Part shown: in pieces, positions 21,272 through 57,131 of the stretch
Position numbering within the stretch: position 1 is the first letter of the stretch
Layout: each line of letters begins with the position of its first letter
From: Bacillota bacterium
GTDB lineage: Bacteria; Bacillota_I; Bacilli_A; RFN20; CAG-288
Direction of reading: 5' to 3'
DNA: 64,000 nt
Assembly: GCA_036830315.1 (NCBI GenBank)
Contig: DAISOU010000002.1
Location: 45,132-109,131, forward strand
Position numbers and translations under genes: made by a program
The notes under the pieces: model-generated
Told to the model about the DNA's origin: nothing
What the model saw: the letters and a program-made list of their open reading frames with translations, nothing else
Database searches by the model: none

Positions 21272-21304
21272 CTTTGCGAAATAAACCAATCACTTTGCGA
21301 AATA
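21272..21304 (+). promoter_or_regulatory. Candidate LytTR-type operator: perfect 12-bp direct repeat phased 21 bp apart, upstream of GH3-3
   Basis: CTTTGCGAAATA at 21272-21283 and again at 21293-21304. A TATATTATAA -10-like element at 21331-21340 follows ~27 nt later. The ATG is at 21366. Confidence 0.6.
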
Positions 21305-26648: not shown

Positions 26649-28139
26649 ATGAAAAACAAAAGTTTATTACTGCTTTCATCCTTAATGCTGATATCGGTTC
26701 CGTTTTCTCTCTCCGCCTGCGATAAAAAAGAAGAGATCAGTTCTCTTTCATCAGTGGAGCAGACAGTAAAAACACTTGAAATCGCCTCCAATCCCAAGAA
26801 GACTTCCTATGTCGAAGGACAGAGGTTCTCAAAAACGGGTCTTATTCTGAAGGCGACTTTAGAAGACGGTTCTTCTATCACTCCTAAGACCAGCGATGTA
26901 GTCATCACTCCTAATCGTGCTCTACAGACTTCCGATACTAAGGTGACAGCAACTTATAGGAAGACTGAAGTCGATATTCCAATCACTGTTGCTAAACGGG
27001 TCTTAGAAAACATCGTTGTCACCGAACCCACTAATCTGAAAGTCGGAGTCGGAGATGTCTATTCCTTCTCCGACTTGATTGTCTTTGCTCACTATAACGA
27101 TGAATCTGATGATGTGGAGCTGAAAGCCTCGGAATATAAACTCTCCATTAATGACAGTGAAGTCAAAAGCTCTGATATCTGCTCGTTAGATGAAGGCTCA
27201 TATACTGTCTTAGTCTCCTATCAGAACAAGACTTCTTCGTTTATGATCTCTGTCATCAAAATGACTGTCGCCGATGTCACTTTCACAAATCCTGTCTCCT
27301 TGTCCTTTGCTAAAGGAGGAAAATACGATTTCACGGGATTTGAAGCTCATGCAACCTTTAAAGAAGAAGGCGTCAAAGCTAAAAATCTTGATTTCAATCG
27401 TCTGAAATTCACCATCGGCGAAAAAGAAATCCATCACGGAGACGTCATAGAGTCAGATGACGGAACTTACAAAGTAGATGTGACAGTACTCAATACGGAA
27501 TCAGTCTTCAATTATTCCTTTGATATCGAGATCTTCGCCGGTTATAAGATTGAGGCTGAAGACTTGTCGGTCTTAGAAGAAAGTGAAATTCTCTCTGACT
27601 CATATGTTCGAGGAAAAGCTGAGAAAAACAGCGCCGACTATATTGATTATCACACTGACACTGTCTTACCTCTCTCCAGTAGAAATGATTCTCTCAAAGC
27701 TTCGGCTGGTCAGTATCTAGGTGAGATAAGAGGGGGCTGCTATATCGAATTCAACTTTAAGAGCGAAGTATCTCAGAAAGCCTCTATCAACATCAAAGCT
27801 GCTTCGACCTGGCTTAGAAAAGACAAAGACTGGAATCCTCTTTGGATGGGGGACATTCAGCTAAACGAAGTCTTCAAGGCAACAGCCAATGAGACGGCTG
27901 TAAACATAAGTGACGAGGTGATACTAAGTGGGTCTGGCGATATTGACAATACTGAGACTGGGGTGGCGGCGTGGGACAACTTTGAATCTGTCAGCTTTGG
28001 GGAGATGGATCTTGCTGTCGGCTGGAACAAGGTTTCGATAGAGATTGAACCGGAAAGCAAATTGGCCAAATATGTCAATTCTCACGGTTCCTTCACAATT
28101 ATGAATATTGATTATCTGTTAGTCGGCTTCAAAAAATAG
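26649..28139 (+). CDS. Lipoprotein with Big_3-like Ig repeats and a C-terminal CBM6/35-like module
   Basis: Lipobox SLSAC. Repeats are of the type LEIASNPKKTSYVEGQRFSKTGLILKATLEDGS. The C-terminal module starts YKIEAEDLSVLEE. Confidence 0.8.
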   Translation: MKNKSLLLLSSLMLISVPFSLSACDKKEEISSLSSVEQTVKTLEIASNPKKTSYVEGQRFSKTGLILKATLEDGSSITPKTSDVVITPNRALQTSDTKVTATYRKTEVDIPITVAKRVLENIVVTEPTNLKVGVGDVYSFSDLIVFAHYNDESDDVELKASEYKLSINDSEVKSSDICSLDEGSYTVLVSYQNKTSSFMISVIKMTVADVTFTNPVSLSFAKGGKYDFTGFEAHATFKEEGVKAKNLDFNRLKFTIGEKEIHHGDVIESDDGTYKVDVTVLNTESVFNYSFDIEIFAGYKIEAEDLSVLEESEILSDSYVRGKAEKNSADYIDYHTDTVLPLSSRNDSLKASAGQYLGEIRGGCYIEFNFKSEVSQKASINIKAASTWLRKDKDWNPLWMGDIQLNEVFKATANETAVNISDEVILSGSGDIDNTETGVAAWDNFESVSFGEMDLAVGWNKVSIEIEPESKLAKYVNSHGSFTIMNIDYLLVGFKK

Positions 28140-34135: not shown

Positions 34136-36454
34136 TTAAATCAATATCAGATAGAGTTCCCAGTGGCTGTTCATACCCTGGAAGTTCTTGATACGATAGG
34201 TGCCATTAGAGGTCACCAGGGATTTGATGCCGTAATCAAGAGGCAGGTATTCGGGATAGAAGGCACAGTAGGAAATGTGTTCATTGGAGATATCGACATA
34301 GGAGTCAGCGACTTTCTGAACTACTTTGAGCTGGTACTTTCTTTCTTTGACCATATTGGTAAGATCAATTAAGGATGTGAAGGAGTTATCTTCTTTGACT
34401 GCGAGTTTGGTTAACAGCGGATTTTCAGGATAGATGTTATTTCCGTTAGTTCCAAAGACCAGGTAATTGAGCTGCAGGTAGAGAGAGTCTTTATCAAGAA
34501 GGCTGTTGACATATCCAGAGATCATGGCCTGCGGTTCATTGTCTTTGGAGATGAAGCTGATATCGGTGGCCTTGGCGTTATCTTTGTCTTTGAAGACCTT
34601 GTAGTAGCTGGTTGTCTGATAGGATTCGGTTTTGACGCAGAACATGAAGCCATCTGCTGAAGAGTTAACGGCACTGACAGTCTCCAGAAACTCATTTGTT
34701 ATTTCATTGTCTCCGTACTGAGCGCCAATCCAATGGATGCTGTAATTGGTATACGACTTGATGTCATTGATATCGATATCGACTTGGAAATTGTAGTCTT
34801 CATCAGTAATGATATCAGCTTTGAAATGAGTGATGCTTTTTTCTTCGGATGAAGTATAGATATCGATGTAGGATTCTCCTTTTCGGAAAGAGCCTTTTAG
34901 GCGGAGGTTCATCCTGCCGTCGATGTTGACATAATCGAAAGAATAAAGAGAAGCGCTGTAGTCTTTGATCTCGAGTTTGAGGAAGCTGTCATAATTTCGG
35001 AAACGATAGCGGTTGAGAGTTGTTTCTGAGAATACCATCTGAGAATAGTTGTTGGCATCGCTTAACAGATATTCGTAAGTGTAGTTGTTGACATAGGTCT
35101 GATTGCCAGAGGCATCAGTGCCCATGTTGGTATTGAAATACAGTTTCAATGAATACCAGGGGCCTAACTGAGTCAATAAGGTCAAGTCCGCTTTGACTGA
35201 GAAGGAATCACCAAGTACCGTAATCGCATAGGGCTGCTTTTCCGGATTGATCTTTGAATCAGAGACAACGCTGAGAACAGGAGAAGCAACATCCATGATT
35301 TTTCCAGTTGTCGGGTCGAGAGGGAAGAGCTTCCGGTCGATTGTGCCTTCGCTGACAAAGTAGACTTTGTCGTTTTCCTCGATGATTTCAGCCTTTAAGA
35401 TATTGACGGCGGCTTTGTTGCTGAAGATGACTGATAATTGTCCGTTTTCGTTGTAGAAGGAATAGATCTTTTCATCATAGGAGATCTTCTCTGGCAGGCT
35501 TTCAGAACTGAAAGGATAATCGATGGAACTATAGACTCCGGATGATAAGACTAGATAGGCCATATAGGAAGTCTGCGGTTTTTCAAGAACTGACAGATCA
35601 AGCAAACAGGTGAAAGAATAGTCCTGATTGATTGTCGCTTTCTGATAATAGGTGAAACTGTTCTTCTGATTGATGAGGAGAAGACTGAAGTTCTTGATGT
35701 TCTTGTCGTTGACTACACCGGTAGCTTTAAGACTGATCTTGTCCTTGTTTTCAAATCCCAATGAACTGAAAGTGACCAAATCTTTTCCAAATGAGGAGTT
35801 TTCTCTAAAGACCTGGGACTGATAAATTCCTTTGTTCTGACCGAAAGAGGAGGTGAAAAGATAGTAGGGCTTATCGGCATTGCAAGTGGCGATGAATTCA
35901 TCGGAGATTGTCGCGTTTTCTAAGACTATTTCGGTACTGCTGTTCTTGAAATCAGTGGTTGAGCTTCGATAGATGCAGATTCCTCCGACATCAAAGAAGT
36001 TATTGGCGGAATATCCGTTTTCAAGATAGGAGAAGGAAATGATGTCATTTCCGGAATTGTTTCCTTTTCCCTGATTGATATACATATTGAAAGTGGGAAT
36101 GACCAGATTCTCTTTGCCTCTTATCTGATTGTCTTTGTCGACAATCAGAAGATAGAAGTCGTTATCAAAAAGAGTGTAGTTCAAGGTGATGAAGTCTTTG
36201 TTTCCAGTATAGTCAGCCTTGGTATCGGTGTCATCTAAGAGAGCGTCATCGGAAAAGAAGAAAACGTCACCTTCTTGTAGGTCTTTGCTTAATGAAAAAG
36301 AAATATCATACGAATAATCAGTTCTGACTTTAATCTGAAAACCGCTCATGAGATAAGAAGAATTACCGCCAGAGGTATTTTCCGTTGTTGCTTTCTGACA
36401 GGAAGAAAGGATGAAAGGCAGAAGGCAGAGACTGAACCAATATTTCATTTTCAT
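34136..36454 (-). CDS. Lipoprotein of an unrecognised family (paralog of 24390..26633)
   Basis: Lipobox ILSSC. Collinear similarity to the 747-aa protein over the whole length, including C-terminal GTYRIKNF...LYLILI versus GTYSVDTY...LYLTLK. Confidence 0.8.
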   Translation of the reverse strand: MKMKYWFSLCLLPFILSSCQKATTENTSGGNSSYLMSGFQIKVRTDYSYDISFSLSKDLQEGDVFFFSDDALLDDTDTKADYTGNKDFITLNYTLFDNDFYLLIVDKDNQIRGKENLVIPTFNMYINQGKGNNSGNDIISFSYLENGYSANNFFDVGGICIYRSSTTDFKNSSTEIVLENATISDEFIATCNADKPYYLFTSSFGQNKGIYQSQVFRENSSFGKDLVTFSSLGFENKDKISLKATGVVNDKNIKNFSLLLINQKNSFTYYQKATINQDYSFTCLLDLSVLEKPQTSYMAYLVLSSGVYSSIDYPFSSESLPEKISYDEKIYSFYNENGQLSVIFSNKAAVNILKAEIIEENDKVYFVSEGTIDRKLFPLDPTTGKIMDVASPVLSVVSDSKINPEKQPYAITVLGDSFSVKADLTLLTQLGPWYSLKLYFNTNMGTDASGNQTYVNNYTYEYLLSDANNYSQMVFSETTLNRYRFRNYDSFLKLEIKDYSASLYSFDYVNIDGRMNLRLKGSFRKGESYIDIYTSSEEKSITHFKADIITDEDYNFQVDIDINDIKSYTNYSIHWIGAQYGDNEITNEFLETVSAVNSSADGFMFCVKTESYQTTSYYKVFKDKDNAKATDISFISKDNEPQAMISGYVNSLLDKDSLYLQLNYLVFGTNGNNIYPENPLLTKLAVKEDNSFTSLIDLTNMVKERKYQLKVVQKVADSYVDISNEHISYCAFYPEYLPLDYGIKSLVTSNGTYRIKNFQGMNSHWELYLILI

Positions 36455-36527: not shown

Positions 36528-38384
36528 CTAGAGTGAAACTATCAGATAGTCGAAGTAGACTTCACAGCTGATAGTGCTGATTTTGACAGAATTGAGGCCT
36601 TTTTGAAGGGTGTAGTTTCCCAGGTTGATTTTGGTGAAGACATTGTCAGGAGAGGAAGAAGGCAATTCTCCAAGATATAAGGAGACCTGGGATCTGTTCA
36701 TCTGAATCTGGATTTTTGGATTCTGACTGCTCTGGCTTTTCTGATATAGGCAGATATTGGCGGAAAGAGTAAATATTCCGGAAGTATCAGAATAGAAGAA
36801 CAGAAGAAGACTGTCGTTGTTCTCTAAAAAAGAAGACTGTTTTTTGCTGGCATTCTTATTGAATCTAATCTGTTGTTTGGTATCAGATATCAGATTCTCA
36901 GCCTCGCTTTGAAAGAGACGATAATTTGATCCTACTTCATTGTGGAAGAGAGTCAGACAGTCAAGAGAATACTGATTAGTCAAAGACGTTACCTGAATGA
37001 CGTTGAGACCGGAACGGAGAGATATTTTCCCGATAGGAAGATCGACGAAGTTCTCTAAGGAATCACTCTCTTTCAATTCCACCGTATTGATGAAAACGAC
37101 AGTGGAGTTTACTTTGAGCGAGAGAATTGAAGAAAGAGCAGTCGTATTGCCTCTATATCCTAAAGTGATCGCTAAACGTGGATTGTCTTCTAAGACTGAT
37201 TCCAATTCAAATTGAACATAGGAATAACGATAGTTGTTGGTGACATAAGCTCCAGCTGAAGCGAGAGAATTATTGACGATCTTTGGTCCGTTAAGTGTGG
37301 CATCTTCGGCTTCAAAACGGCAATTGTCTCTTTTTGAAGAATAATTGATATTTGAATTCAGATAGAAAGAATCAAGGTAGAATATTCCACCTTTGTTTTC
37401 AATTGAAAGTATATTCTCATCTCTTTGAATTGAGATATTTCCGATATTGATTTCAGTGTAGGATACCGTGACATCCCTTAAGTGATTATCAAAGACCATG
37501 TTGCCGTTGAGAGTGATTTTCAGCTGAACGCTTTCACTTTCCTTGGCTGATTTTTTAATTCTTATCGAAAGCTGGGTTGAAGTCTGAGTAGAAGAAAAAA
37601 GATGACAGGTGCTGCTGTTTCCCTTTTCGGAGAAATAAGTTGAAAAGGTAGAACCGGCTTCGCTGTCTTTGATGACTAGAGCACCATTTTGCTCCATCTT
37701 CTCAGAAGGGAATTCCTGCTTTCCTTCATTGGCATTGAACGATTCGCTGTATTTGCTGTTGACAGTCTTTAAACTGACACTGGTGGTTCGATCATAGTTT
37801 GGGGTCAGAACAAAATAATCGAAAGTGAATTCCGTATTGGAAGAGGAGACAATCTCAATCGTATTCTTTCCTTCTTTCAGCTTAAGTGTGCATATATCGT
37901 TCTCGATAAAATCATAGGTGTTATAAGAAGGAGCTATCGATATTCCTGATAAGTTCTTGTGGTCGGAGTTGAGACTGAGAGAGAAAAGACTGTTGGCTTC
38001 TATTCTTTTGTTGGTGTCTGATAAAAGGGAAACAGAAGCCTGGAATTTATAGATAGCCGATTTATCGGCAATCAATGAATAGGAAAGAGATGAGCCTTTG
38101 GTGATGCTGCTTACTACCTGGCTTCCAGAGGCACTGATGTATTCGAGAACCTGGGCCTGACCGAAAAGGTCAAAATCTTCAGCTTCGTAAAGCTGTGCGC
38201 CATAGGTGGAATCAGCTTTCTCATCTTGGCTTCTGTCTACATATTGACTATAGGTATAGGAAGGAAAACTCTCTAAGCTGTCAGGGCTGTTCAAGGCAAA
38301 GAAACTGATCAAAACCGTTGTCAGAACAGCAAAGACTGTGGAGATGACGGCAAAGATGACATATAGTTTATTTTTCTTTGTCAT
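36528..38384 (-). CDS. N-terminally TM-anchored protein with about four CBM6/35-like modules
   Basis: Signal anchor LYVIFAVISTVFAVLTTVLISFFAL. Module starts: QLYEAEDFDLFG, CRFEAEDATLNG, LFQSEAENLISD. ATGs at 38390 and 38384 both lie inside the last codons of the kinase gene. I prefer 38384 because GGAGA sits 6 nt upstream. Confidence 0.8.
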   Translation of the reverse strand: MTKKNKLYVIFAVISTVFAVLTTVLISFFALNSPDSLESFPSYTYSQYVDRSQDEKADSTYGAQLYEAEDFDLFGQAQVLEYISASGSQVVSSITKGSSLSYSLIADKSAIYKFQASVSLLSDTNKRIEANSLFSLSLNSDHKNLSGISIAPSYNTYDFIENDICTLKLKEGKNTIEIVSSSNTEFTFDYFVLTPNYDRTTSVSLKTVNSKYSESFNANEGKQEFPSEKMEQNGALVIKDSEAGSTFSTYFSEKGNSSTCHLFSSTQTSTQLSIRIKKSAKESESVQLKITLNGNMVFDNHLRDVTVSYTEINIGNISIQRDENILSIENKGGIFYLDSFYLNSNINYSSKRDNCRFEAEDATLNGPKIVNNSLASAGAYVTNNYRYSYVQFELESVLEDNPRLAITLGYRGNTTALSSILSLKVNSTVVFINTVELKESDSLENFVDLPIGKISLRSGLNVIQVTSLTNQYSLDCLTLFHNEVGSNYRLFQSEAENLISDTKQQIRFNKNASKKQSSFLENNDSLLLFFYSDTSGIFTLSANICLYQKSQSSQNPKIQIQMNRSQVSLYLGELPSSSPDNVFTKINLGNYTLQKGLNSVKISTISCEVYFDYLIVSL

Positions 38385-39711
38385 GGTCATTCTCCAAACC
38401 TAAAGGGATCATCACGTCGACTTCAAACATGTCATCAGCGATGATGACATCAAGTTGGCTATTGTATTTTTTGGCGATCTGTTCCATGCTTTTTAATCCA
38501 AAACCATGATTGACCGTATCCTTTTTAGTAGATTTGAATTTCATGTCAGTGTCTTTGGCATCAGCAGGCAGATAATAATTCTCACAGTGAATATGTGCGA
38601 AGTTCTTAATTTTTTTGACAGTCAGAGAGATGAAACGGGATTTGGAGTCGGGGACCTTTTCTTCATATTCCAAAGCGTTGTCGAGCATATTGCCAAAGAG
38701 TGAATAAGTATCGGCTTCGTTCATGAACAGAAGGGAACTGCCATCGACCATGCAGGTAAGCTGGACTTCTTTTTTCTGGCAGCGGAGTGAAATGTTGGAG
38801 AGGATGACATCTAAGACTTCATTTCCGGTTTTGATGACGGCATCATAGATATAGATGGAGCTTTCCAACTGTTTCATCATGCTGTCTACACCCTGATTGG
38901 GGTTGGAGCTTTCACGGTAATTCTGAATCTGATGTCTTAAATCGTGGCATTTGATGTTGATGATATCCATGCTTTCTTTCTGTATCTGATACTGTTTGCG
39001 GTCTTCGTTCCACATCTGCTTGATGATGGAAATCATGGTGTTGCTTTCTTCAGTCTTCATCATGTTGAGGAAGAAGGAAGTCATCAGGACTATATAGAAG
39101 AGGAAGGCGATAAATAAGAAAAGAGAGAACTGACTCTCTTTATTGGAAATGATTATTCCTGAGGTTTCAAAGAGAAGAGAGACGATGATAAAAAGCCAGA
39201 CGAAGGCAAAAGTGAATTTGGCTGATACCTGTTCGGTTCTTCCTTTGAAATTTCGGACGAAGATAAAGTAGATGAATATTGCCGATAAGACAAAAGCCAG
39301 CATTTCTATGAGCCATTGGAGGTAAGTTGAAGGAAAGACAGAAGCCAATTGGAGAATGGATATAGTGATCATGGAGACTGCCTTAGTTATATTCTTCCCC
39401 AGAAAGACTACGGCTGCGATGAAATAACGGGTGCTGTTGTTCTGGGATATCAGGAAAAACAATGAGAAGATAGCCAATAAATAAAGGATAATATCGAATA
39501 TAATCACTAAATATGGTGATAGAGTTTCTGTTATTGATTTATCTAGAAATGCGAATAAAGCACAAAAAGCAATTCCTATTGATACACAGGAAACAGCTCT
39601 TATTGCAAAGTTGTGACGGCGGTCCATCTGTCTGATCTCAATTATCACTAGAATCAGGCATTGGAAAAAAGCCAACAGGTGAGTTCCAAAGTATGTAAAA
39701 TATTCTGTCAT
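38368..39711 (-). CDS. AgrC/HPK10-like GHKL sensor histidine kinase (TCS-2)
   Basis: About 6 TM helices. H-box IKCHDLRHQIQNY, N-box LFGNMLDNALEY, G-box NHGFGLKSMEQIAKKY. Confidence 0.9.
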   Translation of the reverse strand: MTEYFTYFGTHLLAFFQCLILVIIEIRQMDRRHNFAIRAVSCVSIGIAFCALFAFLDKSITETLSPYLVIIFDIILYLLAIFSLFFLISQNNSTRYFIAAVVFLGKNITKAVSMITISILQLASVFPSTYLQWLIEMLAFVLSAIFIYFIFVRNFKGRTEQVSAKFTFAFVWLFIIVSLLFETSGIIISNKESQFSLFLFIAFLFYIVLMTSFFLNMMKTEESNTMISIIKQMWNEDRKQYQIQKESMDIINIKCHDLRHQIQNYRESSNPNQGVDSMMKQLESSIYIYDAVIKTGNEVLDVILSNISLRCQKKEVQLTCMVDGSSLLFMNEADTYSLFGNMLDNALEYEEKVPDSKSRFISLTVKKIKNFAHIHCENYYLPADAKDTDMKFKSTKKDTVNHGFGLKSMEQIAKKYNSQLDVIIADDMFEVDVMIPLGLENDHDKEK

Positions 39712-39712
39712 T

Positions 39713-40417
39713 CTATAAACCTAGATAAGAATTAAGAGAAGAAAGGAAGGCTTTTTTCTTGGAGTGGGATATTGATATCGGTATTTTCCTGTCGGTCAGA
39801 TAAACGGTATCTTTATCGGTTCCCACAACATACTTCATATTGACGATAGTCGAATGGTTACAGCGGATAAAAGGGCCTTTTGACAATTCGCTTTCAGCGG
39901 CGGCCAAAGTTTTCCACACTTCAAAATCTCCTTGCTCGGTATGATAAATCAAGAGGTGATCGGAGATTTCAAGATAATAGACAGTGGAGAGATAGACTTT
40001 CCTCGTTCCACCGACTGTTTTCAGAACCACTTCGTCTTCGTTGTTGCTGATTAAGATTCTCATCGTCTTTTTCATCAGGGATGAGAAACGGGCATAATTG
40101 ATAGGCTTCAATACGTAATCCAAGGCATCAACTTCATAGCCTTTGATTGCGTATTGAACCATATTGGTTATGAATATCAATACGACCTTTTTATCAAAAG
40201 CCCGGATTCTCTTTGCCAAGTCCATGCCGTTGATAGCCGGCATTTCAATATCGAGGAGAATCAGATCATAGGGTTTCTTTTCATCAAGAAAAGACAATCC
40301 GTTATTGTAATAATGGATTTCAAACTCAATGCCGTTGTCTTTTTGAAAATGAATTAGATGTTCATGGAGGATGTCATAGGCAGCTTTTTCATCTTCGACT
40401 ATCGCTACATTTATCAT
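39713..40417 (-). CDS. LytTR-family response regulator (TCS-2)
   Basis: I prefer the ATG at 40417 (MINVAIVEDEK) because it aligns with the N-termini of the other two RRs. Receiver motifs LILLDIEMPAINGMD and LIFITN. LytTR C-terminus FIRCNHSTIVNMKYV. Confidence 0.9.
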   Translation of the reverse strand: MINVAIVEDEKAAYDILHEHLIHFQKDNGIEFEIHYYNNGLSFLDEKKPYDLILLDIEMPAINGMDLAKRIRAFDKKVVLIFITNMVQYAIKGYEVDALDYVLKPINYARFSSLMKKTMRILISNNEDEVVLKTVGGTRKVYLSTVYYLEISDHLLIYHTEQGDFEVWKTLAAAESELSKGPFIRCNHSTIVNMKYVVGTDKDTVYLTDRKIPISISHSKKKAFLSSLNSYLGL

Positions 40418-40586
40418 TTTGTTTTGATTACTTATTTTACTATATTCTGTGAGCAAAAAGAACACCTGATGATAATTGGCTGAGAGTCTAAAAACAGATT
40501 TAGGTGTTTTTCCGTATTAGTTTTGTGTTATTCTTTTTAAAAAGAATTGGTCCTGTGTTTTTTTCTTTCTGTTTTGAGGTATCTAA

Positions 40587-42715: not shown

Positions 42716-42846
42716 AATGTATTCTTTCAGATGTAAGCCCTTGCATATACCTTGTGCAAGTCTAAGAAAGGATAAAAGGAGGCTTTTTATTATCGGATTC
42801 TTATGTCATACGAGCTGAGATGATGCTAAAAGAAAGGAAAAAGCAA

Positions 42847-45800
42847 ATGAAAAAAAGCTTTATCGCATTAGGGGCGTTAGCGTTATTCGGATGTTCCTTC
42901 GCTTCGGGAAAGATGAACTCTTCTCTGCAGATTGATAACTATAACCGGGCACTTCAGACAAATCGGGCATATACTTCTGATTATGATGCCAAAGAGGATG
43001 CTCTGAAGAAAGGTCTTGAAATCAACGAGCAGATTGCTGAAGAAGGCATGGTTTTACTTAAAAATGAGAATAATGCCCTTCCTTTAAGTGCCAAGAAGGG
43101 TACTCTTGCCAGTCATGTGACTGTCTTTGGCTATGCTTCATTTAATCCTACTGGAGGCGGATCATCTTCAGGAGATGCTTCCGGCGGTATAGCTAAGCTT
43201 ACTGCCACAATCTATTCCAGCTTAGCTGATGCCAACATCGTCGTTAATCCGACTGTCAAGAAAGCCTACACGGGCTGGTTAGCTGAGACTGTCACTGGAA
43301 CTAATTCCTATGGTCAGACAGTTCAGGTTCCTAAATATGGCTCTGATTTGGCTCTTGACGGAATTATAGAAGAAAACAAGACGACTTTAGAAGATTCTTA
43401 TGGTTCCTACTCTGATGCTGCTATCCTCGTCTTCACCAATGGCACAGGAACTGAAAGAGCTCATCGTATGGCTCTTGATCAGGAACAGTATGACTTGGTT
43501 GATTATGCAGCCAGCAAGTTTGGCAAGGTCATCGTCCTTATCAACAATTCGACTCCGATTGAAATCAAGAAACTCAAAGACAACGTCAATGTCGATTCTA
43601 TCTTGGTTATCGGAGAACCCGGTGACAACGGCTTTGAGGCTGTCGGCAAGATCTTGAACGGCACCGTCAATCCTAGCGGCCACTTGTCTGATACTTATTC
43701 GGCTGATTTCACCAAGGATCCCAGTTTCAACAATATCAACCTGACCGGTGCCGCGGACGGAAACCCGCAGTATACCGTCAACGGCGAAAAGAAGAATTCC
43801 TATTTCCGCGATTATGACGAAGGCATCTATACCGGCTATCGTTATTATGAGACTGCCTATGCTGAAAAACTCGCCGGAAACTATGCTGATTTTGAATATG
43901 ACAGTGCAGTCGCCTATCCTTTCGGACATGGCTTAAGCTACACTGACTTCAAATGGTCTCTAGTCTCAACCAGCGGAACTCTTGAGAAAAACGGAAATCT
44001 TTCCTTTAATGTCAAGGTTACCAATGACGGAGAGACAGCTGGCAAAGATGTCGTCGAACTCTTCTATCATGCTCCCTATATCACAGGCGGAATCGAAAAG
44101 TCTGATGTGGTCTTAGGAGACTATGCTAAGACTGACTTGCTAAAACCTGGCGAGAGTCAAATCGTCAACTTGGAAGTCGATGTCAATGACTTGGCTTCTT
44201 ATGACTATAAGACCGATAAGACTTATGTTCTTGATGCCGGAGACTATGTCTTCTCCCTGAGAACTGATGCTCATACTGTCAAGAAAAACGCTGACAGCGA
44301 AGATCTGAAGGTGACTAAGAATCTGGCTGCCAAGGCTTTAGTCAATACTTCAGTCACCGGTTATACTGTCACCAATCAGTTCCAGGATGTCACTGACGGT
44401 GGAAATGAACACGGAGTCGGTACTTTCTCCAGAGCGAATTTCACGACTACCTGGCCGGCTGCCCCGACTGCCGAAGAACACGTTCTGACAGCTGAGCAGT
44501 TTAAGGCTCTGGAGACTGTCGTCACGAAGGAATATGATACTGGCTCCAAATGGGAAGAGACAACTATGCCTGCTTATTCTGATCCTGATACCCGTCCGGC
44601 TACTGCAGCTGTAAAGCTTGCTGACCTGACTGGTGCTGATTACGATGATCCTAAGTGGGACACTCTTCTCGATGAGCTTTCCTTAGATGAAATGAACAAT
44701 CTTATCACCAATGCCGGCTTCAGAACCGAATCCATCGATTATATCGGCAAACCTTATTCTCTTGACACTGACGGACCTAAGGGCTGGACTGGTACTGGAA
44801 CTTCTGGAACCAGATTCAACGCTTTCGCTGCTGAACCTGTCATTGCTGCTACCTGGAACAAGGAATTAGCTTATGATATGGGCAAGATTGTCGGTGATCA
44901 GGGTATCTGGGGCTGTCTTGACAGAACCGATACGGCTGCTGGCGGTAAAATCTATGGTTACACTGGCTGGTATGCTCCTGGCATGAACCTGCACAGAAGT
45001 CCTTTCGATGGACGTTTTAACGAATACTTCTCCGAAGACCCTGTCTTGACTGGAAACACTGTCGCTAATCAGTCTTTGGGTATCAAATCTAAAGGCGGTT
45101 ATGTCTTCCTCAAGCACTTCGCCGTCCATGAAGACGGTGGCGGTGTCGGAATCTCGATGTCGGGAGGTTCCTTCAAGATCACCGGTTATCGCGGTGGTGC
45201 TGAAGCTACTTCCGGAACCTGCTACTGGCTTACTGAACAGGCGATGCGTGAACTCTATCTGAAGCCTTTCCAGATTGCCGTCGAAGATGGTCAGGCCGGT
45301 GCTGTCATGTCTTCCTTCTCAAGACTTGGAACTACTTGGGCCGGTGCTTCTTATTCCTTACTTACCGAATGTCTGAGAAACGAGTGGGGATTCAAGGGCT
45401 ATGTTGTCACCGATATCGATATCTACGGCTTCCTCAACGTCGACCAGATGATCAGAGCCGGCGGCGACTGCCTCCTCACTTCTTCCATCACCTCCAATAA
45501 GAGAAGATGCGGAACGACAGATTACACTTCTTTGGATAACCCCACTGCCACTCAGATTGCCGCTATGAGAAGAGCTACCAAGTCTATTCTCTACACTGTC
45601 GGAAATTCTCACGCCATGGATGTTCCGATGGGTGCCAAGGTAAATTACGCAGCTGAAAATTCGATTGTCAGCGGCGAAGTCGGTGCGGCTCTTGATATCG
45701 ATTGCTCTGATACCTCTCTCAATACCAAATACAACTATTCTCCGATAACATACACTGCTGAAACTCTTCCTGAAGGTCTTACTCTTGATGCTGCAACCGG

Positions 45801-46173
45801 ACATATCACCGGAACTGTGGCAACTGCCGGTCTCTATTCCATTGATGTCGTAGCTGCTGCTGATGGCTATGAATCAGCGACTAAACAGATTCTTGTTTCA
45901 GTCAATGATGGCTCCAAGACAATCAGTGAACAGATTACCGATTTAGAGGCTCAGATTGAGGCTTTGAAGACAAAGTTAGATACTACCAATGCTGATAAGA
46001 CGGCTTTAGAGACCAAGATCACTGAACTTCAGGCTAAGATCGCTGCTCTGGAAGCAAAACCTGAAACTAAGATCGACAATACCGGATTGATTACCGGAAT
46101 TGTCATCGTCGGTGTCTTAGCAGCTGCTGCTGTCGCTTTAGGACTACTTAACCTTTTGAAGAAAAAGAATTAA
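42847..46173 (+). CDS. GH3 exo-glycosidase (GH3-6): lipobox N-terminus, C-terminal Ig-like domain, coiled coil and TM anchor
   Basis: ATG at 42847 follows AAAGGA. Lipobox ALFGC. Motifs: EEGMVLLKNENNALPL, VAYPFGHGLSYTDF, VTNDGETAGKDVVELFY, WYAPGMNLHRSPFDGRFNEYFSEDPVLTG, KHFAVHEDGGG, GFKGYVVTDI. The tail reads YTAETLPEGLTLDAATGHITGTVATAGLYS, then heptad-like LEAQIEALKTKLD...ITELQAKIAALEAK, then a TM helix and KKKN. Confidence 0.9.
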   Translation: MKKSFIALGALALFGCSFASGKMNSSLQIDNYNRALQTNRAYTSDYDAKEDALKKGLEINEQIAEEGMVLLKNENNALPLSAKKGTLASHVTVFGYASFNPTGGGSSSGDASGGIAKLTATIYSSLADANIVVNPTVKKAYTGWLAETVTGTNSYGQTVQVPKYGSDLALDGIIEENKTTLEDSYGSYSDAAILVFTNGTGTERAHRMALDQEQYDLVDYAASKFGKVIVLINNSTPIEIKKLKDNVNVDSILVIGEPGDNGFEAVGKILNGTVNPSGHLSDTYSADFTKDPSFNNINLTGAADGNPQYTVNGEKKNSYFRDYDEGIYTGYRYYETAYAEKLAGNYADFEYDSAVAYPFGHGLSYTDFKWSLVSTSGTLEKNGNLSFNVKVTNDGETAGKDVVELFYHAPYITGGIEKSDVVLGDYAKTDLLKPGESQIVNLEVDVNDLASYDYKTDKTYVLDAGDYVFSLRTDAHTVKKNADSEDLKVTKNLAAKALVNTSVTGYTVTNQFQDVTDGGNEHGVGTFSRANFTTTWPAAPTAEEHVLTAEQFKALETVVTKEYDTGSKWEETTMPAYSDPDTRPATAAVKLADLTGADYDDPKWDTLLDELSLDEMNNLITNAGFRTESIDYIGKPYSLDTDGPKGWTGTGTSGTRFNAFAAEPVIAATWNKELAYDMGKIVGDQGIWGCLDRTDTAAGGKIYGYTGWYAPGMNLHRSPFDGRFNEYFSEDPVLTGNTVANQSLGIKSKGGYVFLKHFAVHEDGGGVGISMSGGSFKITGYRGGAEATSGTCYWLTEQAMRELYLKPFQIAVEDGQAGAVMSSFSRLGTTWAGASYSLLTECLRNEWGFKGYVVTDIDIYGFLNVDQMIRAGGDCLLTSSITSNKRRCGTTDYTSLDNPTATQIAAMRRATKSILYTVGNSHAMDVPMGAKVNYAAENSIVSGEVGAALDIDCSDTSLNTKYNYSPITYTAETLPEGLTLDAATGHITGTVATAGLYSIDVVAAADGYESATKQILVSVNDGSKTISEQITDLEAQIEALKTKLDTTNADKTALETKITELQAKIAALEAKPETKIDNTGLITGIVIVGVLAAAAVALGLLNLLKKKN

Positions 46174-46192
46174 GGAAAGGATAACAGTATAA

Positions 46193-46864
46193 ATGCTTAA
46201 AAAAAGAATTGGATTTGCTCTTCTCGGTGTTTTGATAGTTTTGACAGGATGCGGGGAAAAATCTTCCTCCTCAGTTTCTGACAAACCCGCATCCTCCGTC
46301 TCTTCATCAGTGACTTCTTCTTCCAAAGAAGAAGCTAGTTCATCTAGTGTTGAAAAACCTGAATATGAAAGATTCGAGGCTGAATACATCAATGTCACTG
46401 ATCCTATCTTGATGGGTTCAGGAATCTCAGGGTCGGCAGCTGGTGTCAATCTTGTTTTGCAGGATGCCAATAGCAGCAATGGCTGGTTTATCGGCTACTC
46501 TCATAGAACGGGATTTGCCGTCACTTACAAAATCACTGCTGATAAAGCGGCTACGGCCAAGATGAAACTGGGCTTTGGCAATGAACTTGGTGTAGGCATG
46601 ACGATGAATACTGCTTCTCTGGCTTTTTCACTGAATGGAACGGCTGTTACCTACAATCAATTCGTGATTCAGGTTGATGGCTGGCACTCCTACGACTTCT
46701 CTTCTACTTTGAACCTAGTCAAAGGTGAGAACACCTTAGTAATGACAGTCGGTACCAATGAATACTGCAACGGCGGACCCGGTGGACCTCTCTTCGATTA
46801 TATCGATTTGAAAACTGAGGCTGCCTTAAGCTGGAATCCGGTAACTTCAAACATCGAAGAATAA
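46193..46864 (+). CDS. Small lipoprotein with one CBM6/35-like module
   Basis: Lipobox VLTGC and a Ser-rich linker. The module starts YERFEAEYINVTD. Confidence 0.8.
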   Translation: MLKKRIGFALLGVLIVLTGCGEKSSSSVSDKPASSVSSSVTSSSKEEASSSSVEKPEYERFEAEYINVTDPILMGSGISGSAAGVNLVLQDANSSNGWFIGYSHRTGFAVTYKITADKAATAKMKLGFGNELGVGMTMNTASLAFSLNGTAVTYNQFVIQVDGWHSYDFSSTLNLVKGENTLVMTVGTNEYCNGGPGGPLFDYIDLKTEAALSWNPVTSNIEE

Positions 46865-46874
46865 GGATTAGACC

Positions 46875-46910
46875 CTCATACGCCCGGTTTCCGGGCGTAT
46901 GAGTTTATTG
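46875..46910 (+). terminator. Intrinsic terminator
   Basis: CTCATACGCCCGG-ttt-CCGGGCGTATGAG followed by TTTATT. Confidence 0.85.
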
Positions 46911-46926
46911 AAATCAAGGAGAAAAC

Positions 46927-49869
46927 ATGAATCCATTTAAAAAGATGTGGCAGACAAAGAGGACGCGGATCTTCATGATCGTCTGTCCGCTTGTCCTGAT
47001 ACTCTGTCTGGTTATTTCTCTTGTCATCGCCAATGTCCCGATAATCTCGGGAACTTTGGATATTGCCTTTGGAGGCAAGAGAGCAATAACTGGCGAAAAC
47101 AAGCAGCATTACGCTTCTGATTATGAGACGAAGGCTGAAGCCAAAGAAGCAGCCGAAAAGCTTGGAGTTGATATCGTCTCCGAAGGCATCACCTTGCTGA
47201 AAAACGAAAACAACGCCTTACCTTTGAAAAAAGATGATAAAGTCACTGTCTTTGGAAAGAACAGTGTCAATCTAGTTTATGGAGGCAGCGGTTCCAGCGC
47301 TTCTAAGTCTGAATCCAATGAAGGTGTCTATTCTTCTCTGGAAGCTTCCGGTTTCACCTATAATCCTACGATGAAGGCTTTCTATGACGATAAGGGAAAG
47401 AGCGGAAGCGGTCGCTCTACTTCTCCTAACATGGGTGATATCATCGCCGGTTTTGCAACGGGTGAGACTCCTATTTCCTCTTATACGGAAACACAGAGGC
47501 AGTCTTATTCTCAATATCGAGATGCCGCGATTGTCGTCATTTCGAGAATCGGCGGAGAGGGTTATGATCTTCCTCGTTCTATGAAGACTGATTATTCTGC
47601 TGATGCGACTAAGGTTGAGGGTGCCAGAAACAAAGATGACCATTATCTGCAGTTAGACCAAAATGAAACTGACCTTCTCAAAGAGGCCAATGACAACTTT
47701 GATAAAGTCATCGTCGTTCTCAATACGGCTCAGATCATTGAGACTGGGTTTTTGGATGACACCGAAAACTATGCCTATTATCCCAATATCAAAGCCTGTC
47801 TTTGGATGGGCTTGCCAGCTACTAAAGGCGCTTTGGCTTTAGGAAAGGTCTTGAGCGGAGAAGTAAATCCCAGCGGTCATACCGTTGACACTTATGCCAG
47901 AAATTTCAAAAACGATCCTTCCTATAAGAACTTTGGAAACAACAACACTGACGGCGGAAACGAATATCTGGTTTCCGGAAACAAAGCTGGTTATTACTAT
48001 GTCGACTATGAAGAGGGAATCTATGTCGGCTATCGTTATTATGAGACTCGCTATCAGCAGGAAAAAACTAAAGATCCTGATACCACCTGGTATAAGGACA
48101 ATGTAGTTTATCCTTTCGGATATGGACTTAGCTATACGACTTTTGATTGGGAAATAAAGTGGCCTGACATCAGTGACATCACTTCTCCGGATCAGGAAAT
48201 AAAAGTCGAAGTCAAAGTCACAAATACCGGTTCTGTTGCTGGTAAGGATGTCGTTTCTCTTTATTACACTCCTTTCTATACAGAAGGCGGAATCGAAAAG
48301 AGCTATGTCAATTTGGCCGCTTTTGAGAAGACTTCTCTTTTAGAGCCGTCTAGTAGTGAGACTTTAACTCTTTCTCTTCTTGCCTCTGATATGAAATCTT
48401 ATGATTATGATGATTCCAATAAAAATGAGTTCTATGGGTATGAATTGGAAAAGGGACGTTATGATCTTCACGTCGCCTCCGATGCTCACACCTATAAAGA
48501 AAGTCATTCGTTCAACGTTACTGAAAACCATCAAATAGACAAAGACTCTAAGACAAAGAACAAAGTTGAGAACCAGTTTGACGATGTGTCAGAGGGTATT
48601 TCCTCTGTCATGTCGAGAAAGAGCTTTGAGACTACTTATCCGACAACACCCTTGGAGGCTGACCGAACTAAAGACACCGCCTTTATTTCTTCTTTGTCCT
48701 ATAAAAAAGATGATTCGGGAAAACCCTGGGAAAGCACTACTATGCCGACTGTCGCATCAGCTGAAGTCTCCAAGGAAAACATAACTGTCACCTTAAAGGA
48801 CTTGGTCGGAAAAGAATATGATGATGCTCTCTGGGATACGCTTCTGAGTCAGCTTACCTTGGATCAGATGTCAAAATTGATCGGAACTGGTGCTTATGGC
48901 ACTGTCTCTATTGAGAATATCTCAAAGCCGATGACGACTGAACCTGACGGACCTTCAGGCTTTACTTCCTTTATGGCCCTTTCAGATGATGCTGTTGTCT
49001 ATGGCACTGCTTTCTATCCGGCTGAATCAGTCCTTGGTTCTACCTGGAATAAAAAACTGGCTGCTTCGATGGGGAAAAGTATCGGAAACGAAGGACTTAT
49101 CGGCAATGAAAAAGGAGACAAACTCCCATATTCAGGCTGGTATGCACCCGCTTGCAACATTCACAGAAGTCCTTTCGGAGGCAGAAACTGGGAGTATTAT
49201 TCCGAAGATCCTTATCTCTCAGGAATCATGGGAACAGAAGTCGTCAAAGCCTGTAAGGAAAAAGGCGTCTACTGCTTCGTCAAGCATTTTGCCGCCAATG
49301 ATCAGGAGACTAACCGCGACAGTGAAGGATGCTTAGTCTGGATGGATGAACAGACTATGAGAGAAATCTATCTCAAACCCTTTGAGATGATAGTCAAAGA
49401 AGGAGAGACGACAGCGATGATGTCCTCATTCAATCGATTAGGAAAAACCTGGGCGGGCGGAAGTTACGCTCTTCTGACTAGTGTCTTAAGGAAAGAATGG
49501 GGATTCAAAGGCGAAGTTGTCACTGATTACAACCTCTTAAGATATATGAATGTCAATCAGATGATAAGAGCAGGTGGAGACTTAGTTCTCAATCAGGGCA
49601 ATAAGGCACCTACTGTCAAAGATGCCGATGCCACTCAGGCAACGGCTATCTATAATTCCACTCATAATATTCTCTATACCATCGCCAATTCCAATGCCAT
49701 GAATGCAGAAATATTGGGATATCTGCTTCCAAAGTGGCAGGTGGTGATGTTTGCAGTCGACTATTCTCTTTTAGGTCTTATGGTGATCTGGGGAGTGGCA
49801 GTCACTGTTTCGGTCTTCTATAAGAAGAAACAAAAACCCGATTACGAATCAGCAAAAAAAGAAAATTAA
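46927..49869 (+). CDS. GH3 exo-glycosidase (GH3-7), N- and C-terminal TM anchors
   Basis: RBS AAGGAGAA. Motifs: SEGITLLKNENNALPL, ISRIGGEGYDLP, VVYPFGYGLSYTTF, VTNTGSVAGKDVVSLYY, WYAPACNIHRSPFGGRNWEYYSEDPYLSG, KHFAANDQETNR, GFKGEVVTDY. Confidence 0.9.
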   Translation: MNPFKKMWQTKRTRIFMIVCPLVLILCLVISLVIANVPIISGTLDIAFGGKRAITGENKQHYASDYETKAEAKEAAEKLGVDIVSEGITLLKNENNALPLKKDDKVTVFGKNSVNLVYGGSGSSASKSESNEGVYSSLEASGFTYNPTMKAFYDDKGKSGSGRSTSPNMGDIIAGFATGETPISSYTETQRQSYSQYRDAAIVVISRIGGEGYDLPRSMKTDYSADATKVEGARNKDDHYLQLDQNETDLLKEANDNFDKVIVVLNTAQIIETGFLDDTENYAYYPNIKACLWMGLPATKGALALGKVLSGEVNPSGHTVDTYARNFKNDPSYKNFGNNNTDGGNEYLVSGNKAGYYYVDYEEGIYVGYRYYETRYQQEKTKDPDTTWYKDNVVYPFGYGLSYTTFDWEIKWPDISDITSPDQEIKVEVKVTNTGSVAGKDVVSLYYTPFYTEGGIEKSYVNLAAFEKTSLLEPSSSETLTLSLLASDMKSYDYDDSNKNEFYGYELEKGRYDLHVASDAHTYKESHSFNVTENHQIDKDSKTKNKVENQFDDVSEGISSVMSRKSFETTYPTTPLEADRTKDTAFISSLSYKKDDSGKPWESTTMPTVASAEVSKENITVTLKDLVGKEYDDALWDTLLSQLTLDQMSKLIGTGAYGTVSIENISKPMTTEPDGPSGFTSFMALSDDAVVYGTAFYPAESVLGSTWNKKLAASMGKSIGNEGLIGNEKGDKLPYSGWYAPACNIHRSPFGGRNWEYYSEDPYLSGIMGTEVVKACKEKGVYCFVKHFAANDQETNRDSEGCLVWMDEQTMREIYLKPFEMIVKEGETTAMMSSFNRLGKTWAGGSYALLTSVLRKEWGFKGEVVTDYNLLRYMNVNQMIRAGGDLVLNQGNKAPTVKDADATQATAIYNSTHNILYTIANSNAMNAEILGYLLPKWQVVMFAVDYSLLGLMVIWGVAVTVSVFYKKKQKPDYESAKKEN

Positions 49870-54137: not shown

Positions 54138-55925
54138 CTAGAGAGAGTTTTCGTAGACTTTGACTTCAGCATGGGCATCTTTGCCAAGCTGGCAGTCATT
54201 GTTTCCGGAAGAAGTAGTCCACATATCAAGGAAGGTCATGGCATCATTGAAATCACCGTTCCAGCCATCACGGGCGACATCGAAGTCACCGGCTTTTCTG
54301 GTCTTCAGGAAGGTAGCCCATTCCTGAACATCAAGCTTCATCGTGATTCCGTAATTGGAGAAAGCACCCTGGAGGTATTCAGCGATGGCCTGATGGCCGC
54401 TGGACTTGTTGAGAATATAGGTGAAGGTGGGGAAGTCAGTGAATTTCTTCTTGGTGTCATCGTAGTTGTAACCGCCGGCTTTGATAAGCGCGATGCCTTC
54501 GGCGACATTGGCGGCCTGATCGGCAGGATCGACGGAGTAATAGCCCTTGCCGTCTCCCTTTGTTCCGTTCTTGGCGGCAAATTCGGTGACGCCGTCTCCT
54601 TCATAGGTTCCTTTGGCAACAAAGGAATTGGCAGGAGTCTGATCGCCTTTGGCGACGTTCTCGATAAGGTAGTTACGATCGATCAAGAGAGATAATCCTC
54701 TTCTGACACTGGCTCTCTTTGCTTCCGTGTCAGCCTTTGCGAAGGTAGTGGAATTGACGTTGAAGGCGACATAATAGGTTCCTAAGAGGTTTTCGTTGAA
54801 GTATTCGCCTCTAGGTTCATAGGTGCTCTTGATAGTGGCGATAGAGTCGATGGGGAAAGAATCAGCTAAATCGATGGCGCCGTTTTGATAGTTGGCATAG
54901 ATGGTGGTATCGTTATCGTCGAGAAGGAAATTAAGATTAGTCATACTGACATTGTCGGCATCATAGTAATTGGGATTCTTGACATATTTGATTTCGGAGT
55001 TGCTCGTCCAGGAGTCAAGCTTGAAAGGTCCGTTTGAGATATAGGTGGCAGGCTTAGTGGCCCAGCCTCCTCTTTCAGCGCTGGATTCGACAGCTGACTG
55101 TTTGACAGGAGCATAAGCCGGGAAGGCCATGAGCTGATTGAAATAAGGACATTCAGCGGTGAGGACAACAGTCAGTGTCTTGCCGTCTTCAGAAGCGGTG
55201 ACATTGAGCTTCTTGGTTCCGGTTGTATCATTGTTGCATTCGAGTCCGCCGTCGATGACATCGAAGATATAGGCGTAATCGGCAGCTAAGGTTCCAGAGG
55301 CGGCACGGTTCCAGGCATAGACGAAGTCAGCGGCAGTCAATGCCGTACCATCGGACCATTTGCTGTCCTTCAAAGTGAAGACATACTTGACCTTGCCATC
55401 GTCTAAGACAGTCTTGACCGGTTCGCCATCACTCAAGGCCGGAACAGCGGTTGTGATTCCCTTGACGTTCTTGAACTGATAGAGTCCGGTGAAGGAATTA
55501 GACACATAAGTGGCACCATCGACAGAGCTGTTGAGGGCCGGATCAATCGTGTCAGGCTCAGAGGCGATACAGGCAGCCATCGTGGTCTTGCCGTCATCTC
55601 TGGTGCAGTCATAGAAGAACTTATAGCCTAAGCCGGAATCGAAGAAACCGTCAACGTGAGAATTGAGAAGGAACTGGTCAGTATAGTAGTAGATAGGACA
55701 GACAGCTCCTGAATTCATCAGCATCGTCTCAGCTTCATGTAAAAGATTCGATCTCTTAGTCAGGTCAGATTCAGCTGTCGCCTTTGTTATCAGGGCATCA
55801 TAGGCTCCGCCCCAGGACTTTTTGTCTCCTTCAGGAGCAATCTTTGTGACGGTGGTGTTTCCACATCCCGCTAAGATAGCAGCCATGCTTAATATTCCCG
55901 TAAGATTAATCAATGCTTTTTTCAT
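54138..55925 (-). CDS. oppA: ABC transporter substrate-binding lipoprotein, family 5 (OppA/DppA-like)
   Basis: ATG at 55925 (MKKALINL...) with lipobox ILAGC. FTLKDSKWSDGTALTAADFVYAWNR and YVKNPNYYD are typical of peptide/oligosaccharide family-5 SBPs. Confidence 0.85.
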   Translation of the reverse strand: MKKALINLTGILSMAAILAGCGNTTVTKIAPEGDKKSWGGAYDALITKATAESDLTKRSNLLHEAETMLMNSGAVCPIYYYTDQFLLNSHVDGFFDSGLGYKFFYDCTRDDGKTTMAACIASEPDTIDPALNSSVDGATYVSNSFTGLYQFKNVKGITTAVPALSDGEPVKTVLDDGKVKYVFTLKDSKWSDGTALTAADFVYAWNRAASGTLAADYAYIFDVIDGGLECNNDTTGTKKLNVTASEDGKTLTVVLTAECPYFNQLMAFPAYAPVKQSAVESSAERGGWATKPATYISNGPFKLDSWTSNSEIKYVKNPNYYDADNVSMTNLNFLLDDNDTTIYANYQNGAIDLADSFPIDSIATIKSTYEPRGEYFNENLLGTYYVAFNVNSTTFAKADTEAKRASVRRGLSLLIDRNYLIENVAKGDQTPANSFVAKGTYEGDGVTEFAAKNGTKGDGKGYYSVDPADQAANVAEGIALIKAGGYNYDDTKKKFTDFPTFTYILNKSSGHQAIAEYLQGAFSNYGITMKLDVQEWATFLKTRKAGDFDVARDGWNGDFNDAMTFLDMWTTSSGNNDCQLGKDAHAEVKVYENSL

Positions 55926-57109: not shown

Positions 57110-57131
57110 TGTAGATATCTCCTTTCACTTC

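Follow-up and report, generated by a model that had tools for sequence, protein, structure and literature searches.

Only a few designs are known by which Gram-positive and wall-less Firmicutes detect extracellular polysaccharides, namely RsgI proteins and the kinases or regulators that depend on a solute-binding protein (SBP). The system considered here is a three-gene cassette in a 64,000-nt stretch of a Bacillota genome (assembly GCA_036830315.1, contig DAISOU010000002.1, positions 45,132 to 109,131), hereafter referred to as the window. The cassette encodes a LytTR-type response regulator (RR-B), an AgrC-like histidine kinase (HK-B), and a membrane protein with carbohydrate-binding modules (CBMs) that is designated X, or CBM-B. 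A first-pass annotation of the window had proposed that X serves as a glycan co-sensor for a kinase that has no domain outside the cell. The X family and its strict genomic coupling to the kinase are established in this work, and the co-sensor role is weighed against the other readings of that coupling.

Two-component systems (TCSs) with a sugar-binding partner include the XylFII-LytS-YesN type of SBP-dependent sensors in Clostridia (reviewed in PMC8050422) and CuaD-CuaS-CuaR of Ruminiclostridium cellulolyticum, in which the two-component core senses cellobiose alone and a third protein raises its sensitivity (PMC10384115). As proposed for X, an extracytoplasmic sugar-binding protein encoded beside the TCS provides or refines the signal that controls genes of carbohydrate utilisation. 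CuaDSR is also similar in that its two-component core can exist without the binding protein; kinases of the sister clade of HK-B lack X, and their relation to the X-bearing subclade mirrors that of the CuaDSR core to its third protein. The partner in the described systems, however, has a periplasmic-binding-protein (PBP) fold and docks on a folded kinase ectodomain, and the regulators are of AraC type, whereas the X cassette combines a transmembrane (TM)-anchored array of four CBMs, a kinase without an ectodomain, and a LytTR regulator. A Pfam scan of X gave no SBP match, and its fold is CBM35-like and thus not that of a PBP.

RsgI anti-sigma-I factors of Clostridium thermocellum are polysaccharide sensors with extracellular modules of CBM type (PMC10328401, PMC6852018). 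They share with X the membrane anchor and the extracellular CBM-type modules, with which these proteins of Firmicutes sense insoluble or polymeric glycans and induce genes for glycoside hydrolases. In contrast to X, RsgI unites the sensor and a cytoplasmic anti-sigma domain in one polypeptide and signals by proteolysis; X has only ~5 cytoplasmic residues, and its output would pass through a separate histidine kinase. No sigma factor or sigma-I gene was found in the X cassettes.

A third group consists of membrane accessory proteins that modulate kinase activity, as YycH/YycI do with WalK (PMC7355866, PMC5013275) and LiaF with LiaS (PMC7191749). Like X, these single-pass or other membrane accessories have their genes next to that of the kinase within one operon. 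They differ in having no sequence or fold relation to X and in monitoring the cell envelope rather than nutrients, and WalK possesses an extracellular domain of its own.

The kinase and regulator of the cassette resemble AgrC-AgrA and other HPK10-LytTR pairs in their PF14501 core, their polytopic sensor without an ectodomain, and a LytTR regulator of the kind that binds spaced direct repeats. Set against AgrC-AgrA, the X cassette is without pheromone or processing genes, has an extra tethered CBM protein, and lies in a context of glycan degradation. BtsS is a 7-TM kinase that binds pyruvate itself (PMC10653868), and the LytS/LytTR pair BtsS-BtsR, which controls nutrient acquisition, matches HK-B/RR-B in joining a 7-TM kinase to a LytTR regulator. 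BtsS nevertheless belongs to the LytS (5TM-Lyt/GAF) family rather than PF14501, and it has no accessory binding protein.

By fold or sequence, X belongs to none of the SBP co-sensors, RsgI, YycH/YycI, or LiaF. By analogy, kinases with accessory proteins and sensors with CBMs (CuaD-CuaSR, SBP sensors, YycHI-WalK, LiaFSR, and RsgI) may be taken as precedent for X as a co-sensor. A full-text literature search that combined LytTR or histidine kinase with CBM35, carbohydrate-binding module, or GH3 returned no description of such a cassette; a LytTR regulator in a glycan locus of a Gram-positive bacterium was mentioned just once, as a table entry, Ros-7 (PMC5320581).

Conserved coupling of X to a histidine kinase

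RR-B, HK-B, and X are three consecutive genes, all on the minus strand of the window, and the lipoprotein gene that comes next, Y, is a probable fourth gene of their operon. The features are as follows.

39713–40417, minus strand: RR-B, 234 aa, ATG at 40417 and stop at 39715–39713; receiver and LytTR domains (Pfam Response_reg, 2.1e-17; LytTR, 1.6e-14)
38368–39711, minus strand: HK-B, a 447-aa histidine kinase of AgrC-type GHKL, ATG at 39711 and TAA at 38370–38368
38391–38395, minus strand: Shine-Dalgarno sequence GGAGA of X, within HK-B coding sequence; it abuts ATG 38390 and lies 6 nt before ATG 38384
38368–38384, minus strand: overlap of HK-B and X, 17 nt (last HK-B codons and stop against first X codons), or 23 nt with ATG 38390
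36528–38384, minus strand: X (CBM-B), 618 aa, a type-II membrane protein with four CBM35/6-like modules
34136–36454, minus strand: Y, a 772-aa lipoprotein of unrecognised fold, after a 73-nt gap downstream of X

Two in-frame ATGs are available for X, at 38390 and 38384. Since the N-terminal consensus of the X family, MKxKxxxY, agrees with the second, the start is most likely at 38384. For RR-B, a GTG at 40465 is an alternative start that was judged unlikely. The first-pass annotation had placed both the start of X and its GGAGA ribosome-binding site (RBS) inside the end of the kinase gene, and had described the CBM gene as packed against the kinase as tightly as the kinase against its regulator. 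The coordinates agree on all counts: a gap of 1 nt separates RR-B from HK-B, an overlap of 17 nt (23 nt from 38390) joins HK-B to X, and the RBS (38395–38391) lies inside HK-B. A promoter and terminator scan detected no terminator-like hairpin and no promoter scoring above shuffled sequence between RR-B, HK-B, X, and Y; hairpins are present 3′ of Y, where it converges on a GH3 gene.

Because X starts within the last codons of HK-B, the two proteins are made from one mRNA, and their translation is probably coupled, in similar amounts. Gene overlap alone is ordinary in compact operons. What goes beyond chance is the conservation of the HK-B/X overlap, not the overlap itself.

Conservation was assessed in the neighbourhoods of X homologues and of kinase homologues with 63% down to 30% identity, and by pattern scans, based on a 10-sequence alignment, of 185,579 species genomes and JGI metagenomes. 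X-family loci with upstream DNA were the window, L001, L005–L008, L010, L012, L013, L015–L021, L024, L028, and L031–L035. The gene order RR (LytTR), HK (HATPase_c_5), X was found in 22/22 X-family loci with upstream DNA, from ~20 lineages, and in every one of the 22 the X gene begins before the kinase gene has ended. This overlap is mostly 4 nt, and elsewhere 8, 10, 11, 14, or 17 nt. A purine-rich RBS for X within the 3′ end of the kinase gene, as in the window, is also seen in L001, L005, L008, L010, L016, L020, and L035. The triad is kept while kinase identity to HK-B drops to ~31% and X identity to CBM-B drops to ~26–27%. No X-family member without a kinase was found. Thus, the adjacency that the first-pass annotation had expected to fail outside this genome if its hypothesis were wrong was kept throughout the survey, and the hypothesis survived.

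The genes around the triad are far more variable. The upstream flanks of the X cassettes are mutually unrelated. Downstream of X, an orthologue of Y occurs only in the closest clade (L001, L005–L008, and L014), a GH3 gene takes this position in L018, L020, L021, L024, and L035, and a pair of genes for proteins of ~470 aa and ~320 aa follows X in L016, L017, and L019. In neighbour-joining trees, the X-coupled kinases form one clade. P0059, a basal kinase that was picked from the tree before its gene context was known, also carries X. The RR-HK-X triad is inherited as a unit.

Two loci depart from the common arrangement in detail. L007 is the exception in overlap length, at 200 nt. At 9320–9540 of this locus, the kinase open reading frame (ORF) is missing its usual stop downstream of a G8 homopolymer and continues for 200 nt into X. 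Owing to this readthrough, X was called as truncated, with loss of its TM helix. The resulting 512-aa kinase call was considered as a possible kinase-X fusion and rejected, as a full X ORF with TM helix starts at 9340; the readthrough reflects either an artefact of assembly or a genuine extension of the C-terminus. In L019 (3067–4911; RUG810), X is split into pieces of 241 and 370 aa, and the near-identical contig L033 (4001–5842) carries an intact X of 613 aa. The split is either a pseudogene or a sequencing error.

Architecture of X and HK-B and their candidate targets

The AlphaFold model of X, built with a 39-sequence alignment, has an overall pLDDT of 89.5 and a pTM of 0.81. It comprises a helix (residues 6–32), a short segment, and four beta-sandwich modules. 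In the model, the cytoplasmic part is a Lys-rich tip of ~5 residues and the remaining mass of the protein is predicted to lie outside the cell. The parts of X, all encoded on the minus strand, are listed below, with the matches of D2 to D4 obtained with the family profile.

38289–38369, minus strand: TM helix, residues 6–32, without a lipobox; small and polar residues on one face
38205–38288, minus strand: membrane-proximal segment, residues 33–60, with the family motif (Y/F)PxYxYxxY(V/I)DRS
37794–38204, minus strand: module D1, residues 61–197; Pfam CBM_6 (1.6e-8); carries GAQLYEAE and a YNxYDFxEN loop
37347–37751, minus strand: module D2, residues 212–346; matches the CBM35 of 3zm8 (1e-9)
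36936–37337, minus strand: module D3, residues 350–483; matches the C. thermocellum CBM35 2w47/2w1w (1.4e-5)
36531–36926, minus strand: module D4, residues 487–618; matches CBM35 2wz8 (1.3e-4) and 2vzp (2e-3)

Pfam alone reports a single CBM_6 domain in X (residues 69–196), the other modules falling below threshold, and BLAST found no internal repeats in the protein. By hhalign, D1 to D4 are mutually homologous, with probabilities of 99.6–99.9%. When single modules were compared by Foldseek, CBM35 structures 2w1w, 2vzp, and 2w47 were the best matches (TMt 0.76–0.81, rmsd 2.5–3.6 A), and the modules have the size (~130 residues) and all-beta build of the CBM35/CBM6 fold. Model, profiles, and folds therefore uphold the description of X as a TM-anchored protein with four CBMs: there is one N-terminal helix, and each of the four modules matches CBM6 or CBM35. 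The ‘EAE’ start motif and the terminal Asp, which are structural-calcium ligands in the CBM35/CBM6 family, are conserved in the modules of X: the family alignment shows no variation at E67, E69, D189, E360, or D475 and hardly any at E358, E496, or D612. The modules of X are putative binders of extracellular carbohydrate.

An exhaustive profile search recovered ~40 full-length clusters of X at 50% identity, 600–628 aa in length and matching the whole profile including the N-terminus, followed by two-module short forms, which keep the N-terminal half, and then by generic multi-CBM proteins. A word-indexed protein search returned only two homologues, whether queried with the single sequence or with the 39-sequence profile. 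The family is unannotated (hypothetical proteins) and so far confined to uncultured lineages: all of its sources are metagenome-assembled genomes or metagenome contigs, labelled Bacilli, Erysipelotrichaceae, Clostridia, or Clostridiales. An uncleaved TM helix is kept in 39/39 aligned members, and none of the 39 has a convincing lipobox. Half of the non-family CBM matches of the X profile do have one; these generic matches are for the most part lipoproteins and stand in other gene contexts. An L-x-x-C lipobox is likewise present in the other surface proteins of the window, i.e., Y, its paralogue at 24390–26633, and proteins of 594, 223, and 496 aa. The best conserved stretch of X is residues 41–75, (Y/F)PxYxYxxY(V/I)DRS...GAQLYEAE, and D1 is the most conserved module.

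HK-B matches HATPase_c_5 (PF14501) in Pfam at 6e-22. Its AF2 model (pLDDT 81 overall and ~90 in the TM part) has seven TM helices, at residues 2–26, 35–59, 65–87, 92–122, 129–153, 167–189, and 193 onward, the seventh continuing into the DHp helix. The connecting loops measure 3–13 residues, with 3–6 for the outer ones, and the positive charges of the inner loops indicate an outer N-terminus and a cytoplasmic catalytic core. The first-pass annotation had described the kinase as having no extracytoplasmic domain, and the 7-TM model confirms this. With outer loops this short, HK-B would be unable to hold a polymer itself. The catalytic boxes are intact, with an H-box around His256 and invariant H256, D257, H260, N341, N345, G403, and G405 in the alignment. 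The best fold matches in the PDB are the cytoplasmic module of AgrC (6e95/6e52) and its ATP-binding domain (4bxi; TMt 0.73). The similarity to AgrC comes via Pfam and fold, as phmmer and a family profile found no sequence match to HK-B in the PDB at E <= 0.01, nor was there one in NCBIfam, and the TM domain has no detectable sequence similarity to that of AgrC. HK-B shows the traits of an HPK10/AgrC-like kinase: the PF14501 GHKL core, the polytopic sensor without an ectodomain, and a cognate LytTR regulator 1 nt upstream.

LytTR regulators such as AgrA and ComE classically bind two direct repeats ~21 bp apart. When the intergenic regions of the window were scanned for a shared operator, one perfect repeat with 21-bp spacing and one weak pair were found. 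The perfect repeat is as follows.

21272–21283 and 21293–21304, plus strand: perfect 12-bp direct repeat CTTTGCGAAATA, 21-bp spacing, 60–95 bp upstream of the GH3 gene at 21366

The weak pair is A-rich, consists of GAATAACAC and GAAAAACAC, and is the only candidate in the divergent region of RR-B and RR-C, the regulator gene of a neighbouring module. Repeats of TTCGTAAAT or TTCGTG type with 21-bp spacing also occur upstream of the RR genes in L010, L017, and L008. These repeats make both autoregulation and control of GH3 genes plausible, without assigning either to one particular regulator.

X as a possible co-sensor, and alternatives

RR-B, HK-B, and X may work together as a signalling cassette of three genes, with X as the accessory ligand-binding partner of the kinase, a reading for which confidence is evenly balanced. 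As expected of an accessory gene, X is adjacent to the kinase, the stop and start overlap in 22/22 loci, and no terminator or convincing promoter intervenes. Accessory input is the most economical reading because the coupled RR-HK-X triad is invariant among variable neighbours, because the kinase is blind outside while its partner is almost wholly extracellular and built of glycan-binding modules, and because X keeps a TM helix where its neighbours use lipid anchors. Thus, the first-pass co-sensor proposal is supported in part, by the adjacency and by the kinase without an ectodomain. The linkage suggests, but does not prove, that X is the kinase’s missing glycan antenna.

A mechanism can be proposed on this basis. 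The ligand of the CBM modules would be a glycan outside the cell, most likely one on which the membrane-anchored GH3 enzymes encoded nearby act, or a fragment of it. Occupancy would alter the packing of the X TM helix and membrane-proximal module on the 7-TM bundle of the kinase, and the altered packing would in turn switch autophosphorylation at His256. Phosphorylated RR-B might then bind the 21-bp-spaced direct repeats through its LytTR domain and turn on its own operon and the GH3 genes. In its stronger form, X and the 7-TM kinase would constitute a two-protein receptor, the first histidine kinase to read polymeric glycans via a separate membrane-tethered CBM array and the first polysaccharide-sensing LytTR/HPK10 system. 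This claim is tentative, and belief in it falls a little short of even. If it is true, a third design for polysaccharide detection would be added to those known in Firmicutes, with a single TM helix linking a CBM array to an AgrC-like kinase that lacks an outside domain, and the input of other “blind” polytopic kinases would be explained where peptide genes are missing. The specificities of X and the kinase TM domain would then be co-evolving, which would account for their fast, correlated divergence, and uncultured Firmicutes of rumen, gut, and digester would offer a natural collection of modular glycan biosensors. At three genes, the cassette is compact enough to be rebuilt in a model host; if it works as proposed, swaps of X/kinase pairs could yield programmable glycan reporters.

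Hints of contact between X and the kinase are mixed. The sequence of the X TM helix is not conserved, and its G/A/S/T residues lie on one face (helical moment, shuffle p = 0.013). This face comprises A12, S/T16, A19, A/S23, and A/S30. Across 16 triads, the distance matrix of X correlates better with that of the kinase TM domain (partial r given RR, 0.56–0.73) than with that of the cytoplasmic domain (0.21–0.45), a result that is suggestive only.

Several observations weigh against X as a co-sensor. A single ancestral cassette probably gave rise by vertical descent to most of the 22 loci, which consequently do not count as 22 independent events. No HK-X fusion was seen among 147 profile hits. 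The helical moment of conservation in the X TM helix is not significant (p = 0.20), and since both X and the kinase TM domain evolve fast, a rate effect may account for the correlation between them. The segment YPxYxYxxYVDRS was considered as a kinase-contact motif and rejected, since related segments precede the first CBM in lipoproteins that have no kinase; it is probably part of the D1 fold rather than a kinase-specific motif. Finally, kinases of the sister clade have the same 7-TM build and no X, and stand beside circularly permuted GH3 genes. These are HK-A and HK-C of the window and the kinases of L025 (Tractidigestivibacter scatoligenes), L026, and L036. X is therefore not universally required, and the 7-TM domain may sense something by itself. 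The X-less kinases equally allow X to be dispensable for sensing. The wider theme is accordingly a LytTR two-component system beside permuted GH3 genes, with X as the addition of one subclade.

The pre-CBM segment is shared with two giant lipoproteins of 2100–2300 aa, in L022 (4764–11057) and L023 (4245–10670). Each has ~8 CBM35-like stretches and a Gly-rich, acidic N-terminal linker, lies directly after a long GH3 gene, and has no kinase.

The main alternative, considered unlikely, is that X is cargo and takes no part in signalling. As a surface glycan-binding protein, it would retain substrate at the membrane for the anchored GH3 enzymes; its gene would be the first structural gene of the regulon, placed directly after the kinase because the operon is auto-induced, and the overlap would reflect compact packing only. 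Short stop/start overlaps do link RR and HK as well and are common in these genomes, and GH3 or lipoprotein genes follow X with no terminator between. Cargo genes shuffle freely in these loci, however, and X stays with the kinase in 22/22; coupling to a kinase also implies few copies per cell, an odd level for a protein that is to capture substrate. CBM surface proteins are scattered in the island at plainly structural positions (26649–28139, 46193–46864, and 10794–12578), but X alone uses a TM helix, the other binding proteins being lipid-anchored. Sister-clade kinases work beside GH3 without X, as cargo would allow, whereas the most conserved module of X is the membrane-proximal one and not the distal one. 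Even if X is only cargo, it represents a new family of surface glycan-binding proteins, together with a LytTR regulon for circularly permuted, membrane-anchored GH3 enzymes.

A second alternative, rather improbable, gives X an indirect role: it would concentrate polymer at the membrane, basal GH3 activity would release a small sugar, the 7-TM bundle would bind this product, and X would raise sensitivity without touching the kinase. Kinases with seven TM helices can bind small metabolites, as BtsS does (PMC10653868), and the CuaDSR core still perceives cellobiose when the third protein, which only improves sensitivity, is set aside (PMC10384115). The X-less sister systems presumably sense a small molecule, and the GH3 enzymes are membrane-anchored at both ends. 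Such a role nevertheless leaves the conserved TM helix of X unexplained, and it gives no reason for the X gene to overlap the kinase instead of sitting with the GH3 genes.

Highly improbable is the remaining alternative, in which the kinase is an AgrC/ComD-type peptide quorum sensor controlling secreted or surface glycosidases as public goods and X lies outside the signal input: the PF14501 GHKL core, LytTR partner, polytopic sensor, and best structural match to AgrC are hallmarks of peptide-sensing HPK10 kinases, but no pheromone precursor, AgrB-like, or ComAB-like gene is conserved in or beside the window cassette or the homologous loci, which makes this reading unlikely even though a peptide could be encoded elsewhere, and the conserved neighbours are glycan-related.

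Modules A and C and the surrounding glycan island

The first-pass annotation had noted that, in the window, a CBM-bearing lipoprotein gene comes first after the kinase in module A and second after it in module C. Both proteins are CBM-bearing at the profile level only: the 594-aa protein of module A (10794–12578) has three modules by profile and the 223-aa protein of module C (46193–46864) has one, and neither Pfam nor BLAST gave a CBM match for either. The two are lipoproteins outside the X family, and their genes do not overlap the kinase. The CBM proteins of A and C do not bear out a general rule for modules A, B, and C, and they add little to the co-sensor hypothesis. A further CBM-bearing lipoprotein (26649–28139) is encoded far from any kinase.

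Modules B (minus strand) and C (plus strand) stand back to back and share a 169-bp divergent region (40418–40586), with X present only in B. In module A, the longest HK-A ORF (TTG at 9246) overlaps RR-A by 40 nt (window 9246–9285), and alignment with relatives suggests that the real start lies further downstream, near MDFQNIW.

Y has a paralogue in the window at 24390–26633 (plus strand), also a lipoprotein; the two are ~750–770 aa in length and share 30% identity, and neither has a match in Pfam or NCBIfam.

Eight large GH3 genes (window 13123–34042 and 42820–49869) are circularly permuted, with Glyco_hydro_3_C before Glyco_hydro_3. Most of their products have hydrophobic segments at both the N- and C-termini and so look membrane-tethered. 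The association of permuted GH3 homologues with this kinase superfamily extends to Coriobacteriia (L025). In L025 (1604–2014), L026 (1595–2005), L036 (10290–10751), and L012 (3323–3793), which are X-less or short-X cassettes, a small hydrophobic protein of 136–156 aa with no Pfam family is encoded right after GH3. It might be another accessory membrane component.

Outside the island, the minus-strand region 54138–63550 encodes a peptide ABC transporter of Opp type (SBP_bac_5 and two ATPases with oligo_HPY). The same region encodes a 931-aa BspA-type surface protein with leucine-rich repeats, and an LRR_5 protein neighbours the L035 cassette.

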